DNA from: Treponemataceae bacterium
Lineage (GTDB): Bacteria; Spirochaetota; Spirochaetia; Treponematales; Rectinemataceae
Length of the DNA: 14,152 nucleotides
Direction: 5' to 3'
Assembly (NCBI GenBank): GCA_963677895.2
Contig: CAXXGJ010000014.1
Span: forward strand, 1-14,152
Position numbers and translations under genes: made by a program. Shown here piece after piece: positions 3,360 through 13,917 of this stretch (the stretch's first letter is position 1; each line of letters starts with the position of its first letter). Below the pieces are notes generated by a model. The model was not told the DNA's origin. It ran no database searches and saw only the letters and a program-made list of their open reading frames with translations.

Positions 3360-5249
3360 ATGTTTAAAATTTCCAGACATGACGTTTTCGGCCTTATTCG
3401 GCCTTCGATAGACGTGCATACCCTCGGGATGCTTTCCTTCGCCCAGGTCCTGGAGGACTGCGGCATAGAATCCCGCATCGCCGACGCCGATGTCGGCGGC
3501 GATATCGAATCCCTTTCCAGGCACGAGGGCGGCACCGTGCTTCGTGCCTGGCTTCGCAACAGGAAAATTTCGGTGCTCGGCTTCAGCTACCGGCTGGACC
3601 CCGCCGATGCCCTCCATCTTTTCGAAGTCCTATATGAGTTCCTCCACCGCGAGAAAATGCTTCTTTCGGATGGCGGTCCTATCAGGGGGCTGTTTTTCGC
3701 CGGGCTTCCTGAAGCCTGCGAGGCGGCGCTCGCCCGGCATCCCGATCTGACAGGCGTTTTCCGGGGCGACGAAGCGCCCCACGAGACGATGCGCATCCTC
3801 GGCATAGATGAGGACATGATGCCGCAAACCTTCTCCGAAGGTCTCAAGTACGACGTCGCGAGGATGGCTTTCGGCGAGTCCCTCGTGAAGGAAGGCCGCT
3901 ACAACGCGGTGAAGCCCGTCAACAGGTCCGACTCTCCCGGATTCGGCGCCTGGGGCGACAGGCTGACGGCGAGGATCGCCCATGGCACTGCCCGAAAGCT
4001 CCCGCCCCTCATACGCGTCCATGCCGGCCCCTACCTGCCCGACAGGAAGGAAGCGGTCAGGCTTTTCACCGAGTGGGTGAAGCGGCTGGCCTCGGGCGGC
4101 TATCTGGACATTCTCTCGATCGGCACTTCCCAGCTCAGCCAATCCAATTTCGGGGAAGACTGGGAAGGCAAGATCAACGGCGGCGGCGTTCCCCTCGCCA
4201 GCGCCGCCGAGTTCGCGGCTGTATGGAAGGCGGCGCGCCCCATGCTGGTGCGTACCTACGCGGGCACCAAGGATGTGCCGGCCCTCGCCAGGATGTACGA
4301 GGAAACGATCGATATAGCCTGGCACGCGCTTTCCCTGTGGTGGTTCTGCAAGCTGGATGGAAGAGGTCCCAACTCGGTGCTTGAAAACCTCAGGGAGCAT
4401 TTTCAGGCCATGCGCTACATAGCCTCGACGGGCAAGCCGCTCGAGATGAACGTGCCGCATCATTTCGCTTTCAGGGGCAGCGACGACCTTGGGTATGTCG
4501 TGTCGGGCTATATCGCGGCCAAGGCCGCCAAACTGCAGGGCATCCGGAACCTCGTCCTGCAGATAATGTTCAATACGCCCAAATACCTCTGGGGCATCCA
4601 GGACCTCGCCAAGGCTAGGACCCTTCTCAAGCTGGTGAAAGGACTCGAGGACGGGAATTTCAGGGTCTTCCTCCAGCCGCGGGGAGGCTTGGACTATTTC
4701 TCGCCAGAACCCGAGCGGGCCAAGGCCCAGCTGGCCGCGGTGACCGCCATGATGGACGACATCGAGCCTCACGACGAGACCAGCCCTCAGATCATCCATG
4801 TCGTGAGCTATTCCGAAGCCTATAAGCTGGCCGATCCGCCCGTCATTGAGGAGAGCATCAGGATCACGCGCCACGCGCTGCGGGAGTACCGGCGACTCAG
4901 GCGCGAAGGCGGCGTGGACGACATGGTCTCGAGCGCCGAGGTGGCCGCGCGCGAGAAGATCCTGCTGGACGATGCCGTGAAAATGATAAAGGCCGTGGAA
5001 ACCCTCATTCCCGACACCTATTCCCCCTATGGGCTCTATACGATGCTTTCTTCGGGCGTCTTCGCCCTTCCGTGGCTGACTTCCTGCCGCGAGGAATTCC
5101 AGGCCGCGAATATCGGGACCCGACTCGTGAACGGCGGCATGCATGCCGTCGACGCGGAAGGATCGCCTCTTCCCGTGGAAGCGAGGATCGAGATGGCGAG
5201 AGCCAATCTGGCCAAGGCTAGCGGCGGAGGAGGTCGTTATGGCATCTGA
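3360..5249 (+). CDS. Cobalamin (B12)-binding domain protein with a large C-terminal domain; putative B12-dependent enzyme
   Basis: N-terminal D18-V-H20-T-L-G23 (DxHxxG), GFS76YRL and LFFAG115 match the His-on cobalamin Rossmann motifs; no CxxxCxxC; SD AGGAGGT overlaps the upstream stop. Confidence 0.75.
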   Translation: MFKISRHDVFGLIRPSIDVHTLGMLSFAQVLEDCGIESRIADADVGGDIESLSRHEGGTVLRAWLRNRKISVLGFSYRLDPADALHLFEVLYEFLHREKMLLSDGGPIRGLFFAGLPEACEAALARHPDLTGVFRGDEAPHETMRILGIDEDMMPQTFSEGLKYDVARMAFGESLVKEGRYNAVKPVNRSDSPGFGAWGDRLTARIAHGTARKLPPLIRVHAGPYLPDRKEAVRLFTEWVKRLASGGYLDILSIGTSQLSQSNFGEDWEGKINGGGVPLASAAEFAAVWKAARPMLVRTYAGTKDVPALARMYEETIDIAWHALSLWWFCKLDGRGPNSVLENLREHFQAMRYIASTGKPLEMNVPHHFAFRGSDDLGYVVSGYIAAKAAKLQGIRNLVLQIMFNTPKYLWGIQDLAKARTLLKLVKGLEDGNFRVFLQPRGGLDYFSPEPERAKAQLAAVTAMMDDIEPHDETSPQIIHVVSYSEAYKLADPPVIEESIRITRHALREYRRLRREGGVDDMVSSAEVAAREKILLDDAVKMIKAVETLIPDTYSPYGLYTMLSSGVFALPWLTSCREEFQAANIGTRLVNGGMHAVDAEGSPLPVEARIEMARANLAKASGGGGRYGI

Positions 5250-6390
5250 CAAAAGCTGGCAGCAAGTTTGCGATATCCTGAAGGACGTGAAGGCCAAGGG
5301 GAAAAAAGCCCTGTGGTGCGTGGTGGGCGCCGGCAACGGAGGAATTTCCATGGCCGGCCACCTGGGGTTCATGGGCTTCGAGGTCCGCCTTTACAATAGG
5401 ACGGACGAGCATCTCAACGCCGTGCGCTGGTATGGTGGCATAGAGCTCGAAGGCGCGGTGGAGGGATTCGGTCCCGTCAGTCTGGCCACCTCATCCATCC
5501 AGGCCGCGGTCGAGGGCGCCGACGTCGTGATGATCGTCACGCCCTCCACGGCTCACTATTCGCTGGCCGCGGCCATGGCCCCCTTCCTCAATGACGGGCA
5601 GGTGATCGTCCTGAATCCAGGCAGGACGGGAGGCGCCCTGGAATTCCGCGCCGTGCTGAAGCAGTCGGAATCGCGAGTCAAGCCGATCATCGTGGAAGCG
5701 CAGACCTTCATCTACGCTTCGCGGGCCGTCAGCCGCCACAAAGGCCATATCTACAGGATCAAGAACGGCGTACCCGCGAGCGCCCTGCCTTCGCACATGA
5801 CACCCGACGCTCTTGCCGTGCTGAATCAGGCTTTCCCCGAGTTCACCGCCGGCTCCAACGTGCTGGCGACGAGTCTCGAGAATATCGGCGCTGTCTTCCA
5901 TCCCGCCCTCACTCTGCTCAACGCTGGCTGGATAGAATCGACGGAGGGCAATTTCGAGTATTACATCCAGGGCATGTCGCCGGCGGTCGCCAAGGTTCTC
6001 GAGAAGATCGACGACGAGAGGCTGGCCGTGGCGAGAGCCCTGGGCATACGCACCGTCTCGGCCAGGGAATGGCTTTACCTTACCTACGACTCCCCGGGCG
6101 ACACCCTCTGCGCGGCGATAAAGGCCACGACGGGCTATTTCGGGATAAAGGCGCCGCCGACGATCAACCATCGCTATATATGGGAAGACGTACCCATGAG
6201 CCTCGTGCCGATGTCCTCCATAGGAGCCATGCTCGGGATACCGACACCTACCATAGACATGATCATCACGCTCGCCGAGCTGATGAACGGCAGCGATTAC
6301 AGAGCCGTAGGAAGAACGGTCGAAACGCTGGGCATCAAGGGAATGAGCGTCGAGCAGATTCACCGACTCGTCACCGAAGGCGACGAGTGA
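5239..6390 (+). CDS. NAD/NADP-dependent octopine/nopaline (opine) dehydrogenase family protein
   Basis: Rossmann VVGAGNGG, LNPGRTGG, ENIGAVFHP, FEYYIQG, ERLAVARALG, HRYIWEDVPMSLVP; SD GGAGGAGG (5226-5233) supports ATG 5239, which overlaps the upstream gene by 11 nt. Confidence 0.9.
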   Translation: MASDKSWQQVCDILKDVKAKGKKALWCVVGAGNGGISMAGHLGFMGFEVRLYNRTDEHLNAVRWYGGIELEGAVEGFGPVSLATSSIQAAVEGADVVMIVTPSTAHYSLAAAMAPFLNDGQVIVLNPGRTGGALEFRAVLKQSESRVKPIIVEAQTFIYASRAVSRHKGHIYRIKNGVPASALPSHMTPDALAVLNQAFPEFTAGSNVLATSLENIGAVFHPALTLLNAGWIESTEGNFEYYIQGMSPAVAKVLEKIDDERLAVARALGIRTVSAREWLYLTYDSPGDTLCAAIKATTGYFGIKAPPTINHRYIWEDVPMSLVPMSSIGAMLGIPTPTIDMIITLAELMNGSDYRAVGRTVETLGIKGMSVEQIHRLVTEGDE

Positions 6391-7978: not shown

Positions 7979-9289
7979 ATGGCAGAAACGAAAGAAAAGA
8001 AGGGGCTTTTTGGCTGGTATTTCAAGACCAACCTTCTCATCCGGATTCTCATCGGCCTCGTGCTGGGCGCCATCGTGGGTATCATCCTGGGATTCTTCCC
8101 CGATTCGGTAAAAGTCTTCGTTGACAATTCCAAATTCTTCGGCGATCTCTTCATCAGGCTGTTGAAGATGATGATCGTGCCGGTTATTCTTTTCTCCCTC
8201 ATCGCGGGCGCCGCGAGCATCGATCCCGGCCGTCTGGGAAGAATCGGCGTCAAGATCATGGTGTACTACCTCTTCACGAGCGCCTTCGCCGTCGTCGTGG
8301 GACTTATCTTCGCCAATATCTTCCAGCCTGGCGTCGGCTTCAATGTCGTGGGGACCGCGGCCGTGCAAGGTAAAGCGGCGGCTGTGCCTACGGTTTCGCA
8401 GATCATACTCAACATCGTTCCGACCAATCCCATCGACTCCCTCGCCAAGGGCGACGTCTTGCCGATCATCTTCTTCGCCGTGGTCTTCGGCATCTCGCTC
8501 TCCTACATCAAGGATTCGGCCAATAAATCCCTGGCCAAGAGCGGCCAGATGCTTCTCGACGTGATCAACGCCGGAGCCGAGACCATCTACAAGGTCGTGA
8601 CCGGCATCATGCAGTATGCCCCGATCGGCGTATTCGTCCTTATCGCGCAGGTCTTTGCCCAGCAGGGCGCCAAGGCTATAGGCCCCCTCCTGGTCGTGAC
8701 CTTGGCCGTCTATCTCGGCCTGATCGTTCAGGTCGTCGTCGTCTACGGCGGCTTCCTGGCTGTATTCAAGCTGGGGCTGTGGAAATTCCTTAAAGGCGCC
8801 AACGAGGCGATGCTCACGGCCTTCGTGACCCGTTCCTCCAACGCCACGCTCCCCGTCACCATGCGCTGCGCAGAGGAAAATCTCGGCATTCCGCGCAAGA
8901 TATGCTCCTTCACGCTGCCCCTGGGCGCCACGATCAATATGGACGGCACGGCTATCTACCTCGGCGTATGCGCGATATTTATCGCGAACGCCATCGGCAG
9001 GCCGCTGACGATGAGCCAGCAGGGCATGGTCGTCCTGACCGCCACTCTCGCCAGCATCGGCACGGCGGGCGTCCCCGGCGCCGGCGCCATCATGCTTCTC
9101 ATGGTCCTCGAATCCATCGGCCTCAAGGTGACCGAAGGTTCCGATGTCGCGGCCGCCTACGCCATGATCCTGGGCATCGACGCCCTTCTCGACATGGGCC
9201 GGACCAGCATCAACATCACGGGCGATATCGTCGGTTCCGCCATCGTCGCGAAGAGCGAGAAAGAACTCGACATGACGAACTGGAAATAA
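7979..9289 (+). CDS. Dicarboxylate/amino acid:cation symporter (DAACS), GltPh/GltTk-like probable Na+/aspartate symporter
   Basis: [70 protein letters not shown]. Confidence 0.93.
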
Positions 9290-9316: not shown

Positions 9317-9354
9317 GGCCGGGCCGCCTCCATGGGAGGTCGCCCGGCCTTTTT
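9317..9354 (+). terminator. Intrinsic terminator after the transporter gene
   Basis: GGCCGGGC-c-GCCTCC / loop ATG / GGAGGT-c-GCCCGGCC followed by TTTTT. Confidence 0.85.
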
Positions 9355-9360
9355 ATTGTT

Positions 9361-9437
9361 TCTGCATATATTATGCAGAAAATATGCATAATATGACAAA
9401 AACCCCTTGATTTATTCTAAATATATGCATAATATGC
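9361..9437 (+). promoter_or_regulatory. argG promoter with ARG-box-like (ArgR) operator repeats
   Basis: Palindrome TCTGCATA-tat-TATGCAGA (9361-9379); TGCA at 9363, 9374, 9385 and 9426; direct repeat ATATGCATAATATG (9382-9395, 9423-9436); TTGATT (9407-9412), 17 bp, TAATAT (9430-9435). Confidence 0.72.
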
Positions 9438-9442
9438 TTTCC

Positions 9443-9526
9443 ATGATGTTCGGACCCGATAATTCTTCCTTTCTTCCTCAATCCCGCCCCGAAACCCGCT
9501 TCGAGGCCCGTCTCCGTCGTCGCTAA
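9443..9526 (+). CDS. Putative arginine-rich leader peptide (27 aa, MMFGPDNSSFLPQSRPETRFEARLRRR)
   Basis: ATG 7 nt after the -10 box with no SD; six Arg codons, ending CGT CTC CGT CGT CGC TAA; stop is 69 nt upstream of argG. Confidence 0.68.
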   Translation: MMFGPDNSSFLPQSRPETRFEARLRRR

Positions 9527-9595
9527 CAATTTATTTCAGCGCTTTCGGCGTTGGAAAGACGCTTTCCCCAGAAAATGTATCGTAAGGAGTAAGCC

Positions 9596-10873
9596 ATGAA
9601 AAAGAAAATCGTACTCGCATATTCGGGCGGCCTCGACACTACCGTCATCGTTCCCTGGCTCAAGGAAAATTATGACTGCGACGTGGTCGCGGCCTGCGGG
9701 GACGTCGGCCAGGAGGCCGACTGGGCTGCCATGGAAAAACGCGCCCTCGCTTCCGGCGCGATAAAGTTCATCAAGGTGGACCAGAAAGACGAGTTCGTGA
9801 AGGACTACCTCTGGGCTCTCGTGAAGTCGGGAAGCCCCTACGAGAAGAAATATCTGCTTGGAACCTCGGCGGCGCGTCCCCTCCTCGCCAAGGGCCTGGC
9901 GCAGGTCGCCATCGCCGAGAAAGCCGACGCGATCGCCCACGGCTGCACGGGCAAGGGCAACGACCAGGTCCGCTTCGAGCTGGGCATCAAAGCCTTCGCC
10001 CCGGAGATGGAAGTGATAGCTCCCTGGAGAATATGGGACATCCAGAGCAGGGAAGAGGAAATCGAATACCTCGAGAAGAGGAACATCCCCGTGCCCATGA
10101 AGAAGTCCGACTCCTATTCCCGCGACGACAATGTCTGGCACATCAGCCACGAGGGTCTCGATCTCGAGAATCCTGCCAACGAACCCAAGTTCGAAGGCAT
10201 GCTCAAAATGTGCGTTCCCCCCGAACAGGCGCCCGACAAGGCCGAATACGTGACCATCGGCTTCGAGAAGGGCGTGCCCGTCTCGGTGAACGGCGAGAAG
10301 CTCGATCCCCTCTCCATCGTCAAGAAGCTCAACGTCATCGGCGGCAAGAACGGCGTGGGCGTCATCGACATGGTGGAAAACCGCGTCGTCGGCATGAAGT
10401 CCCGCGGCGTCTACGAGACGCCGGGCGGCACCATCATCATGGAAGCCCACGACAAGCTCGAGCAGCTCTGCCTCGACAGAAAGACGCTCTCCTTCAAGCT
10501 CACCGTGGCGCAGCGCTTCGCCGAGATCCTCTACGAAGGCGAGTGGTTCTCACCCCTCTGCGCGGCGCTCAACGCCTTCATCGATTCGACACAGGAAGTG
10601 GTGACCGGCAGCGTGACCGTAAAGCTCTACAAGGGCTCCATACTCTCGGCCGGCGCGACCTCGCCCTATTCGCTCTACGACGCGAGCCTCGCGAGTTTCA
10701 CGACGGGACCGCTCTTCTCCCACAAGGATTCCAGCGGCTTCATCAACCTCTTCGGCCTGCCCACCAAGGTGAGGGCGCGGCTCAACGCGCGCATCGCCGC
10801 CCACGGCACGGCCGCCGGCCCCGATGTGGTGAAACCGGGCTGTTCAGGCTATACTGCTCCAGCGGGCGACTGA
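9596..10873 (+). CDS. argG: Argininosuccinate synthase
   Basis: KIVLAYSGGLDTT, YLLGTSAARP, AHGCTGKGNDQVRFE, SRDDNVWHISHEG, ENRVVGMKSRGVYETPG; SD TAAGGAG. Confidence 0.98.
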   Translation: MKKKIVLAYSGGLDTTVIVPWLKENYDCDVVAACGDVGQEADWAAMEKRALASGAIKFIKVDQKDEFVKDYLWALVKSGSPYEKKYLLGTSAARPLLAKGLAQVAIAEKADAIAHGCTGKGNDQVRFELGIKAFAPEMEVIAPWRIWDIQSREEEIEYLEKRNIPVPMKKSDSYSRDDNVWHISHEGLDLENPANEPKFEGMLKMCVPPEQAPDKAEYVTIGFEKGVPVSVNGEKLDPLSIVKKLNVIGGKNGVGVIDMVENRVVGMKSRGVYETPGGTIIMEAHDKLEQLCLDRKTLSFKLTVAQRFAEILYEGEWFSPLCAALNAFIDSTQEVVTGSVTVKLYKGSILSAGATSPYSLYDASLASFTTGPLFSHKDSSGFINLFGLPTKVRARLNARIAAHGTAAGPDVVKPGCSGYTAPAGD

Positions 10874-10936
10874 TGTGACGACAAATGCCGAGCGTCGACG
10901 CGCCATGGGCGCGGGCGGTTCGGCATGAGATTGATA

Positions 10937-10967
10937 AGGGGAGGCGCCGCGCCTCCCCTCATTTTTT
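10937..10967 (+). terminator. Intrinsic terminator-like hairpin between argG and argH
   Basis: AGGGGAGGCG / loop CCG / CGCCTCCCCT (10-bp perfect stem) followed by CATTTTTT. Confidence 0.72.
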
Positions 10968-10984
10968 ATAAGGATGGTGCTGAA

Positions 10985-12466
10985 GTGGCTAAGCTATGGC
11001 AGGCCGCCGCGGGCGGCGTGGGGCTCCACCCCGACGTGGAAGCCTTTCTCTCTTCGCTTTCGGTCGATACGAGGCTCCTGGGCGAGGACATCGAGTGTTC
11101 GATAGCCCACGCGGCGATGCTGGGGAGGCAGGGGATTCTTCCGCCCGAGGAGTCGGCGTCGATATGCGCGGCGCTCGAGCTTATGCTGGCCGAGGCCGGG
11201 GATGGGAAGCTCGCCGTAGATCCGGAGAGCGAGGATATTCATTCCTTCATCGAGGCCGAGCTGACGAAGAGGCTCGGCGAGGCGGGGAAGGCCGTCCATG
11301 CCGGGAGAAGCCGGAACGACCAGGTGGCCGTCGCCTTCAGGCTGCACATTCTGAGGGCTTTCGACGCTACGGAGGGGGCGGCACTGGGCGCGCTGCGGGC
11401 TTTGCTCGGTCTGGCCGAGAATCATAGGGAAACGATCATGCCGGGGTATACGCACCTGCAGCGCGCCCAGCCGGTGACGCTCGCGCACCATTTGCTCGCC
11501 TGGTGCGCGGCCCTCGAGCGCGACTGCGGCAGGTTGCGGGACGGACGCGCGCGGGCGGACGAATGCCCGCTGGGCTCAGGCGCCCTCGCGGGATCGGGCC
11601 TGCCCACCGACAGGGAATTCACGGCCGCCGCCTTAGGGTTCGCGCGTCCGTCCCGCAACACCATGGACGCCGTCGCCGATAGGGACGCATGTTTGGACTA
11701 CGGGGCGGCCTGTTCCAGCATAATGGTCCACCTCTCGCGCGCCTGCGAGGATATCGCCCTCTGGGTATCCACCGAATATTCATTCATGAGCCTGAGCGAC
11801 GCCGCGAGCACCGGCTCGAGCATCATGCCCCAGAAGAGGAATCCCGATCCCGCGGAGCTTATACGAGGGAAGACCGCGAGGGTCTTCGGGGCGCTCCAGG
11901 CCCTACTCGTCATGCAGAAAGGCCTGCCCTATGCCTACAACCGCGATCTCCAGGAGGACAAGGAAATGTTCTTCGACATCGAGGACACCGTGATCGGGGC
12001 CCTGCGCGCCTTTGCCGTCCTCGTCTCCTCGCTCCAGCCCAATGTCGAAAAGATGCGGAAAGCGGTGGATGAGGGTTTCCTCGAGGCTACCGACATCGCC
12101 GAATATCTCGTGCTGGAAGGCCTGCCTTTCAGGACAGCGTATCAGGCGGCCAAGGCCCTCGTGAAACTCAGCCTCTCCTCCGGTAAGCGTTTCTCCGCGC
12201 TGTCTCTCGAGGAAATCCAGGCTAGCCATGAGGCTTTCGCCAAACCCGGCTTCGATCGGGAAGCCTTTATCGACTATCTCGAGCCCGCATCCTGCATGGC
12301 GAGGCGAAGACAGACCGGCGGCCCCGCGCCCGAACGCACCGGCGAGGAGGTCCAGCGTCTGTCGGCCTTTGTCGCCGCGAGACAGGCCTCCCTGGCCGCT
12401 CAAGCCGCCGCCCAGCTGGCCGCCCGGCCGGCTGCGCATCAGCCCGCGCGGAGCGCCTCGCTTTGA
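10985..12466 (+). CDS. argH: Argininosuccinate lyase
   Basis: MAKLW start (GTG 10985, SD AAGGATGG), EDIH, HAGRSRNDQ, MPGYTHLQRAQP, PLGSGALAG, fumarate-lyase signature GSSIMPQKRNPD, YNRDLQEDKE. Confidence 0.97.
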   Translation: MAKLWQAAAGGVGLHPDVEAFLSSLSVDTRLLGEDIECSIAHAAMLGRQGILPPEESASICAALELMLAEAGDGKLAVDPESEDIHSFIEAELTKRLGEAGKAVHAGRSRNDQVAVAFRLHILRAFDATEGAALGALRALLGLAENHRETIMPGYTHLQRAQPVTLAHHLLAWCAALERDCGRLRDGRARADECPLGSGALAGSGLPTDREFTAAALGFARPSRNTMDAVADRDACLDYGAACSSIMVHLSRACEDIALWVSTEYSFMSLSDAASTGSSIMPQKRNPDPAELIRGKTARVFGALQALLVMQKGLPYAYNRDLQEDKEMFFDIEDTVIGALRAFAVLVSSLQPNVEKMRKAVDEGFLEATDIAEYLVLEGLPFRTAYQAAKALVKLSLSSGKRFSALSLEEIQASHEAFAKPGFDREAFIDYLEPASCMARRRQTGGPAPERTGEEVQRLSAFVAARQASLAAQAAAQLAARPAAHQPARSASL

Positions 12467-13285
12467 AACCGGCCGAAGCGGCGGCGCCTGAGGCGCCCGA
12501 CGCGCTTTCTGGGGGGATCGCGCCCACCGCGCTCTCTGAGACTGCCGCGCCAGCTGAGATTGAGGCGCCCGCCGTTCTCCCCTGCATCCTCCTCGCCGCG
12601 GGCGCTAGCTCGCGGATGGGGCGGCCCAAGCTGCTGCTGTCTCTGGACGGCGAGCCCGTCGTTCGGAGAACAGCCCGAATCGCTCTCGCTCATTGCCGGC
12701 CGCTCATCGTCGTCACCGGGTTCGGGCGCGAGAACATCGAGGCGGCGCTGACTGGTCTCGACGATATCGTCTTCGTCCACAATCCTGACTGGAAAGAGGG
12801 AAGGGTGACTTCGGTCCTCGCCGGCATCGAAGCGCTTCCGATAGATTGTCCCGGTTTCTTCCTTCACCACGCCGACATGCCCTTCGTCGACGAGACGGTC
12901 TTCGCCGCCCTGAGCCGCGCCGCATCGTTGCAGCTCGCCGCCGCGGGGGCGCCCTGTCGCCCCCAATGCCCCCGTCGCTCTCGTCGCTCTCGTCGCGGGA
13001 CGAAACGGGAAGGCGGGCCATCCCGTCTATTTCCCCGCTTCCTATATTCCCGCCATCCAGGCCAAGCGGACCGGCGAAAAACTCATGGGCGTCCTCGCGG
13101 CCTTAGGCTCCCTCATTGTCGAAACCGGATGTGACGGCGTCCTGGAGGACATGGACAGCCCCGAGGAATACGCCGCCCTGGCCGCGAAATACGGCCTGAG
13201 CCCGGAAGCGGCAACCGCCCTGGGAGCGATTGCCGGCCCAGAGCCGCGCCCCAGCCCTGGGGATGTGGCCAAGGCCAAAGCATAA
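12463..13285 (+). pseudogene. MocA/MobA-like nucleotidyltransferase (NTP_transf_3) with one +1 frameshift near 12945-12954; probably an intact gene with a sequencing error
   Basis: Frame 1: ILLAAGASSRMGRPKLLL, HNPDWKEG, HADMPFV. Frame 2 continues ...GRNGKAGHPVYFP...DMDSPEEY to TAA 13285. TTG start overlaps the argH stop (TTGA). Confidence 0.8.
12973..12996 (+). repeat. 9-bp tandem repeat, about 2.7 copies of CGTCGCTCT
   Basis: cgtcgctct-cgtcgctct-cgtcgc; encodes VAL-VAL-VA in the restored frame. Confidence 0.8.
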
Positions 13286-13304: not shown

Positions 13305-13795
13305 ACGCAGCAGGGCGAAAAAAAGCGGCGAAAAGACCAACGTGATCCGGCTTCTCGAAGCCGCGAACCTTCCTTTCGAAATCCTTCATTATAAAGTGGA
13401 CGAGGACCTCTCGGCGACCCACGCGGCGGAAAAGCTCGGGCTCGATCCGGACCAGGTTTTTAAGACGATCGTCCTGTCGGGCGAAAGGATGGGCCATTTC
13501 GTCTGCGTCATCCCCGGATCCTGCGAGATAGACCTGAAAAAAGCGGCCAAGGCCCTAGGCGACAAGAGCTGCTCCCTCCTCCCCTCTCAAGGAGCTGGAA
13601 CCCCTCACGGGCTACGTGAGGGGCGGCTGTTCCCCCATCGGCATGAAAAAGCGATTTCCCACCTTCCTCGACGAGACCGCCTTCCTCTTCGAGAAGATTT
13701 CCGTGAGCGCCGGCAGGAGAGGCATGCAGGCGCTGATCAGCCCCCGGCTTCTGCTCGACATCGTGGGAGCCGCCGCCGCCGATCTCATCGCCTGA
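13302..13795 (+). pseudogene. ybaK: Cys-tRNA(Pro) deacylase YbaK with two +1 frameshifts (A7 run 13318-13324; C4 run 13581-13584); probably sequencing errors
   Basis: Restored protein MTQQGEKSGEKTNVIRLLE...QVFKTIV...DLKKAAKA...LPLKELEPLTGYVRGGCSPIGMKK...VSAGRRGMQ; TGA 13793-13795. Confidence 0.87.
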
Positions 13796-13832
13796 TCCGC
13801 CCAAGCCGGATGCTTCCTGGCAGTCTTATCGT

Positions 13833-13917
13833 ACTGGATAAATATGCATAAAAATTACATAAATACGTAAAATCTGCGTCCCACCCCTTGATGCGACCCC
13901 TTCATCCCCGCTATTTT
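13833..13917 (+). promoter_or_regulatory. Tandem ARG boxes and putative carA promoter
   Basis: acTGGATaaatATGCAta (13833-13850), 3 bp, atTACATaaatACGTAaa (13854-13871); TTGATG (13888-13893), 18 bp, TATTTT (13912-13917). Confidence 0.65.

Follow-up and report, generated by a model that had tools for sequence, protein, structure and literature searches.

The argGH operon of genome G000 is preceded by a short open reading frame, MMFGPDNSSFLPQSRPETRFEARLRRR (ATG 9443 to TAA 9526), which ends in a run of arginine codons. This ORF is very probably an arginine-responsive leader of some kind; there is a high likelihood that it is translated, and its terminal Arg codons probably monitor the charging of tRNA-Arg. 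For argGH, the mildly favoured reading is an attenuator in which starvation stalls a ribosome on the leader, with Rho as the likely means of termination. The window analysed, the whole 14,152-nucleotide stretch, is contig C14 of G000, and its features are collected in Table 1. A preliminary description of the same DNA had pointed out a 27-codon ORF with six Arg codons, four of them among the last five, starting 7 nt past a -10 box. Both the ORF and its spacing are confirmed by the sequence. The second leader found before argC and the preference for CGT codons had been missed.

Table 1. Features of the argGH leader region, in window numbering
Feature	Position	Strand	Basis and remarks
Amino-acid/dicarboxylate symporter gene, upstream	7979-9289		Family matches under curated cut-offs
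Terminator-like hairpin and T-tract	9334-9361	+	Stem 9334-9353 plus tail; 3' of symporter gene
ArgR-box-like inner half-site pair ATGCA-N7-TGCAT (putative)	9373-9389	.	Sequence and scan
Second ArgR-box-like pair ATTCT-N7-TGCAT (putative)	9414-9430		Overlaps promoter spacer
Predicted sigma-70-type promoter TTGATT-17-TAATAT	9407-9435	+	-35 at 9407-9412, -10 at 9430-9435
Leader ORF, 27 codons, predicted leaderless start	9443-9526	+	Sequence, promoter position
C-rich, G-poor leader body, candidate Rho loading (rut-like) tract	9458-9508	+	Base composition
Control codons CGT CTC CGT CGT CGC TAA (R-L-R-R-R-stop)	9509-9526	+	Conserved; core CGY-YTY-CGT
Hairpin 3' of leader stop, possible pause site	9534-9556	+	P 0.87 in naked RNA; sequence not conserved
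Shine-Dalgarno (SD) AAGGAG of argG	9584-9589	+	Sequence
argG, argininosuccinate synthase	9596-10873	+	TIGR00032, 470 bits (cut-off 268)
argH, argininosuccinate lyase	10925-12466	+	TIGR00838, 497 bits (cut-off 280); ORF limits, true start may be later

The promoter of the leader is weak, matching at 8 of 12 positions, and is absent from the output of a stock promoter scan; relatives carry TTGAAA-17-TAAAAT at the equivalent position. Other in-frame start codons (TTG 9407, ATG 9425 and ATG 9434) all fall within the promoter. The half-site calls of the two ArgR-box-like pairs follow the ArgR box consensus, and G000 encodes both ArgR and Rho. The hairpin and T-tract behind the symporter gene likely serve as an insulator, shielding the argG promoter from transcription of that gene.

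Conservation was followed within one order, whose families are coded f1 to f6, f1 being the family of G000 itself. The f1 sample covered 59 of 61 argG-matching genomes, two being left out with argG cut at a contig end, and the f6 sample covered 22 loci, two weakly matching f6 genomes being left out. Before argG, 44 of 59 f1 loci and 21 of 22 f6 loci carry the core CGY-YTY-CGT within an Arg-rich end that closes with an in-frame stop. The 22nd f6 locus also carries the leader, beyond the 260-nt limit used, and the terminal Arg run is kept in 22 of 22 f6 loci. The core lies 35-213 nt from argG in the 65 loci and up to about 280 nt overall. Its first position is CGC in 59 loci, GCC in 3 (one of these rows was anchored one repeat early and is in fact CGT), CGT in 2 and CGA in 1; its second is CTC in 48, CTT in 14 and TTC in 3; its third is CGT in 65 of 65. 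The first pattern required CGT at this third position. A relaxed rerun allowing any Arg and Leu codon gained the long-spacer locus alone, and CGT stands there too. The two codons after the core are mostly Arg, with changes including CGA, AGA and AGG, and the leader stop varies in frame between TAA, TGA and TAG. The peptides of relatives are 10-48 codons long and share their end, the last 3-6 residues. In several of them the R-L unit is repeated (RLRLRLRRR, RRLRRLRRR, ARLYAKARLRSR; loci L008, L019, L028, L162, L167 and L184-L199), perhaps through local duplication of control codons.

Starts were called as the strongest SD-led start or a promoter-adjacent ATG, in any frame. With this call, an in-frame start reaches the core in 57 of 65 loci, 43 of them SD-led and 14 leaderless; among the remaining eight, one lies at a contig edge, six have unscored in-frame candidates and one is out of frame. 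In this last locus, L156 of genome G079, the frame of the leaderless ATG is not that of the RLR core, owing to either a natural frameshift or an assembly error. Most relatives keep an in-frame start, and leaderless initiation turns out to be a lineage trait and no part of the mechanism. The leader is missing from 15 of the 59 f1 argG loci. In ten of these (L010, L013, L017, L145-L150 and L158) argG has no SD and its own ATG sits 6-7 nt past the -10 box, a layout that deletion of the leader from ATG to ATG would produce and which suggests that the position of the leader ATG is a working leaderless start.

The argG leader was found in 20 genera, and since the genomes are kin, locus counts overstate independence. 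An ArgG tree of 43 rows was built, in which several inner branches are unsettled and leader presence was labelled manually, with one f6 row marked leader-less in error; it places leader-less lineages scattered among leader-bearing ones in a well-supported f1+f6 clade. No leader was found upstream of argG in the 15 f3 loci, the 30 f4 loci (one of which offered just 17 nt) or the 3 f5 loci, and in many f4 genomes argG is located within the argC operon. A pattern scan of 185,579 genomes matched at least 112 stretches, mostly by chance in GC-rich genomes. Four among the listed matches have argG downstream, from which the range beyond spirochaetes is not inferable, and three named records with leader and downstream argG are labelled Spirochaetota. 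Across the class, the exact pattern occurred in 6 of 401 genomes, all judged chance, in a sample that held few f1 and f6 genomes and with a pattern that misses variants.

A second leader is present in G000 before argC-argJ-argB, where the SD-led ORF MKRSYPVYLPTLLTFGFEPRTPRLYSVRR (G000:C2:390301-390212, minus strand, locus L270) is followed by a C-rich tract. Among 50 of the 56 f1 argC matches, the strongest SD-led short ORF has at least two Arg in its last four codons in 42 loci and one CGT at its end in 4 more (46 of 50 in total), and 4 have no such end. The ends of these leaders include VRR, YRR, SRK and ARR. Lineages g4, g9, g14, g19 and g20 have lost the argG leader and kept the one before argC. 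In f4, argG is often part of an operon with argC as its first gene, and an R-L-R core, judged by reading, precedes argC in 10 of 30 f4 loci (one with 18 nt only) and in the one f2 locus (1 of 1). The Arg-ended leader element is present in four families.

To put this arrangement in a genomic context, a null set of small ORFs, 101 in all, intergenic and either SD-led or leaderless, was drawn from a crude gene call of G000. At least two Arg in the last four codons were found in 7 of 101, with CGT included in 2 of 101, and these two are the argG and argC leaders. This null result and the recurrence before two non-homologous arginine operons make it very improbable that the element is without regulatory function, or is an untranslated RNA or DNA motif with an incidental ORF. 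The in-frame starts and the stop codon that varies in frame also speak against this reading; in its favour are the loss of the leader at 15 f1 argG loci and the out-of-frame ATG of L156. As in leader-peptide attenuators broadly, a short ORF with a valid start lies between promoter and first gene (57 of 65), and its end-product codons are conserved while the remaining peptide varies. Elsewhere in G000, no Arg leader was found before argF (two genes), argS or argR. With TIGR01850, argC was not found in 42 f6 genomes, though argG and its leader are present, and arginine may therefore come from ornithine, citrulline or another route in f6. An SD-led 18-codon ORF of G000, MTNLKNIEPTPLVIVAFT (G000:C6:271114, plus strand), ends in a branched-chain codon run and lies 88 nt before an ORF of no assigned identity; it could be another leader or chance.

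CGT, invariant in the core, makes up 9.7% of Arg codons genome-wide (1601 long ORFs of G000). Before argC, it accounts for 72 of 111 terminal Arg codons (all 50 f1 loci). The tRNA-Arg anticodons of G000, a genome 93% complete, are GCG, UCG, CCG, UCU and CCU; there is no ACG and hence no Watson-Crick tRNA for CGU, so that CGU must be read by wobble. The GCG-tRNA pattern was found in 78 of 101 genomes of the order and the ACG version in 2 of 101, neither of these resembling the tRNA matches. Wobble-read codons tend to slow most under starvation, and such slowness would account for the retention of CGT at sites where CGC would leave the peptide unchanged. In E. coli, CGU is read with a different tRNA.

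The same fixed CGT weighs against a reading in which the R-L-R end acts in the ribosome as a motif for nascent-peptide arrest or a slow step, responding to free arginine or some related metabolite and not to tRNA charging. R-L-R is also a macrolide arrest motif. A Leu or Phe is kept between two Arg in 65 of 65 loci, and several peptides repeat the RL unit, its Leu being CTA-coded in f6, all of which would suit such a motif. Nothing, however, is conserved upstream of the last 3-6 residues in peptides of 10-48 codons, in place of the 10-25 conserved positions of ligand-sensing arrest peptides such as TnaC, SpeFL and AAP, and f1 argC leaders end in other tripeptides. Arrest by excess arginine would moreover drive a biosynthetic operon in the wrong direction, except by blocking the SD, and the SD is too distant for that. 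This reading is considered distinctly improbable.

RNA structure was modelled on naked RNA. The pairings named in the preliminary description all exist in the sequence, with P 0.87 for 9534-42/9548-56, 0.04 for 9553-58/9562-67, 0.27 for 9509-15/9553-61 and 0.11 for CTCC with the argG SD; the hairpins are particular to G000 and are not conserved, the spacers varying between relatives. The leader folds no better than its shuffles (z +1.19). An Rfam scan gave no family, the lone match being P11 on the minus strand at 20.7 bits versus a cut-off of 70, and an NCBIfam search with the leader peptide gave no match. With no Rfam family above cut-off and this fold score, a T-box or riboswitch was rejected. 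A scan of 9527-9595 found no terminator-like site, in agreement with the earlier statement that no U-tract terminator follows the leader, and the sites that a loose scan picked up in 14 of 65 spacers do not share a position. A classical trp/his-type attenuator was rejected on finding no conserved U-tract terminator or antiterminator.

A stall at the same codons could also have a translational output, with CUCC in the control codons or the pyrimidine-rich leader hiding the SD of the first gene as long as the leader carries no ribosome, as in Ms5788A. Its best point is the codon before CGT in argG leaders, which is only CTC, CTT or TTC, all able to pair with GGAG; CTG is never found there though it makes up 27.6% of Leu codons in G000, and this invariance lies outside what the Rho model explains. 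In many f1 argC leaders, on the other hand, GTT, TAT or GCC precedes CGT. Pairing with the argG SD involves just 4 bp, and the modelled probability of core-SD pairing exceeds 0.2 in 7 of 65 argG loci and 5 of 46 f1 argC leaders; core-RBS pairing above 0.2 was found in 4 of 11 f4/f2 argC leaders, which is to its credit. Cognate core-SD duplexes are no stronger than non-cognate ones (-8.04 vs -8.03 kcal/mol). With one stalled ribosome, the relief of RBS opening has a median of 0.16 kcal/mol, which is no more informative than the 0.05 obtained with the ribosome at the stop, and it exceeds 1.4 kcal/mol in 6 of 65 loci. When the ORF is fully covered by ribosomes, relief exceeds 1.4 kcal/mol in 25 of 65 loci and is 1.5 in G000, again in favour of masking. 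Spacers of 35 to about 280 nt do not suit it. Altogether, this output is held to be unlikely, and the SD unmasking advanced in the preliminary description is not upheld. An attenuator of the Ms5788A type was rejected on these pairing and relief values, which come from equilibrium models only, so that kinetic pairing might still take place. In SD-led loci the core could also pair with the SD of the leader itself; this was rejected as well, since the two are not co-adapted (-12.14 vs -12.06) and the idea is inapplicable to leaderless loci.

Rho loads on C-rich, G-poor RNA, and it is this composition that the leaders share. Positions 9446-9508 contain 40% C and 16% G, and for both C-G skew and YC count the segment 9458-9535 ranks at the 99.4th percentile of windows across the genome. 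Over the 65 loci, the 20 nt before the core have 47-51% C and 12-13% G, and the 10 nt after the stop have 47% C and 9% G, compared with 25% C and 26% G after 372 control stops taken from G000 only. The post-stop C-rich test was passed by 45 of 65 loci versus 39 of 372 controls, and the C-G skew exceeds the genome's 95th percentile in 54 of 65 windows, in which the core is included. G000 itself is among the 20 of 65 that fail the C-rich test, the 25 nt after its leader stop being U-rich (C 6, G 5), and its argC leader window reaches the 93.5th percentile for skew and the 68th for YC. The shortest spacer (35 nt) and the shortest peptide (10 codons) are tight for Rho loading. Of 101 genomes of the order, 99 have Rho over the cut-off, too many for its presence to be discriminating. 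The leader has what is expected of a Rho-dependent leader attenuator, that is, a C-rich, G-poor and weakly structured tract that a ribosome can cover in a genome that encodes Rho, with a weaker post-stop part here. The Rho-blocking output raised in the preliminary description therefore fits the conserved flanks and is weak in this window after the stop.

In the proposed mechanism, a ribosome would start at the 5' end of the transcript. When arginine is plentiful, it would pass CGT CTC CGT CGT CGC, terminate and leave; the C-rich, G-poor RNA around the stop would then be open to Rho, and transcription would end in the spacer or early in argG. When arginine is scarce, the ribosome would wait at the wobble-read CGU codons in the middle of the C-rich tract and keep Rho off, and argGH would consequently be transcribed. 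In addition to this leader control, initiation would be set by ArgR. ArgR was found in 24 of 25 f1 and 22 of 24 f6 genomes; the leader would thus be an addition to ArgR and not a substitute for it, in line with the earlier view of a layer besides ArgR.

The same stall could instead act on mRNA stability or by another route, the ribosome near the 5' end protecting the message from nucleases. One layer of Salmonella speF control, with orf34 and RNase G, is a precedent, as far as the available text of PMC6386406 describes it, and cleavage could fall in the single-stranded AU-rich stretches that follow the stop and precede the SD. This output would leave the enrichment of C over G specifically unexplained, and no conserved structure was found; by analogy it may be considered, and it is judged improbable.

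Several known systems resemble the leader in part. The classical attenuators trpL, hisL, thrL, leuL and pheL are short upstream ORFs rich in codons of the end product. The present leader has such an ORF, and a stall is predicted to raise expression, as there; unlike them, it concerns arginine, its control codons abut the stop, and it has no conserved intrinsic terminator or antiterminator. In E. coli tnaC, a ribosome held at the leader end occludes a rut site, and the fungal arginine attenuator peptide (AAP) comes from a uORF linked to arginine and placed upstream of an arginine gene. Excess ligand triggers both, and both act as arrest peptides of specific sequence; the present leader, in contrast, has an unconserved peptide body and is predicted to be triggered by shortage.

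Closer in layout is Ms5788A, a mycobacterial poly-Cys leaderless sORF for which the sections available of 10.1101/834739 describe stable pairing with a downstream SD and no termination role. The Cys 'ribulon' of that source shares with the present leaders the cognate codons at the 3' end, leaderless initiation (in this lineage) and several operons, but here no stable or co-varying SD pairing was found and most relatives are SD-led. For predicted actinobacterial cys leaders, the accessible part of PMC1262725 gives a codon run near the stop, no terminator hairpin and pyrimidine tracts, as here; it proposes polyY tracts as Rho sites, calls the tracts unconserved and saw nothing of the kind in other pathways. 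Those leaders concern Cys in Actinobacteria, whereas the C-rich bias is measurable here across four spirochaete families. According to the same available text of PMC6386406, Salmonella speF orf34/SpeFL has consecutive Arg codons, its translation blocks Rho and arginine lowers expression; it differs in controlling ornithine decarboxylase, in its conserved peptide domain, in an Arg effect via RNase G and in its 516-nt leader. Staphylococcus aureus rbfL, in the accessible portion of PMC13009471, is a short uORF that ends in Arg codons and senses arginine limitation, but it overlaps the downstream SD, its stalling represses (the opposite sign), it uses AGA/AGG codons and its target is a biofilm regulator. 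Judged by its sequence features, the present leader is predicted to work like a leader-peptide attenuator and is outside both the classical terminator type and the SD-pairing type of Ms5788A.

As far as is known, control of arginine biosynthesis is usually put down to ArgR repression, with no part for leader-peptide attenuation. The open literature, supplements and subscription papers aside, yielded no leader-peptide attenuator for arginine biosynthesis. In the main text of PMC2965389 the terms arginine, argG and Spirochaet are absent, and its supplement may list such elements; the supplement of PMC8632094 may list Arg-leader-like attenuators. An order-wide arginine 'ribulon', in which terminator-less argC and argG leaders with a wobble-read CGU sensor let a stalled ribosome gate Rho, is a proposal with chances about evenly balanced. 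If it holds, arginine biosynthesis would have a leader-peptide attenuator, one triggered by starvation and gated by Rho. The element also offers a compact testable case, in four families and two non-homologous operons, beside ArgR. The peculiarity of the tRNA set (GCG, no ACG) would be tied to the sensor codon, and a silent CGT-to-CGC change is predicted to blunt regulation. If Rho is the output, starvation sensing would be joined to Rho gating, a pairing which, in the sources as available, was proposed for actinobacterial cys leaders and not borne out at one locus tested.

Some further observations were made in the window. A 629-aa ORF at 3360-5249 matched no family in the NCBIfam search, and directly after it lies a dehydrogenase-like ORF (5143-6390) with weak family matches. 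Downstream of argH, the profile matches of a MocA-like ORF (12463-13134; profile 2-116 of 188) and a YbaK-like ORF (13342-13851; profile 4-97 of 152) are limited to the first two thirds, which suggests frameshifts or assembly errors. A genome-wide ARG-box scan was noisy, with 42 AT-rich matches. Another ArgR-box-like site, at 13844-13860, is located 5' of an ORF that starts at about 13888 and leaves the window, and is possibly a further ArgR target.
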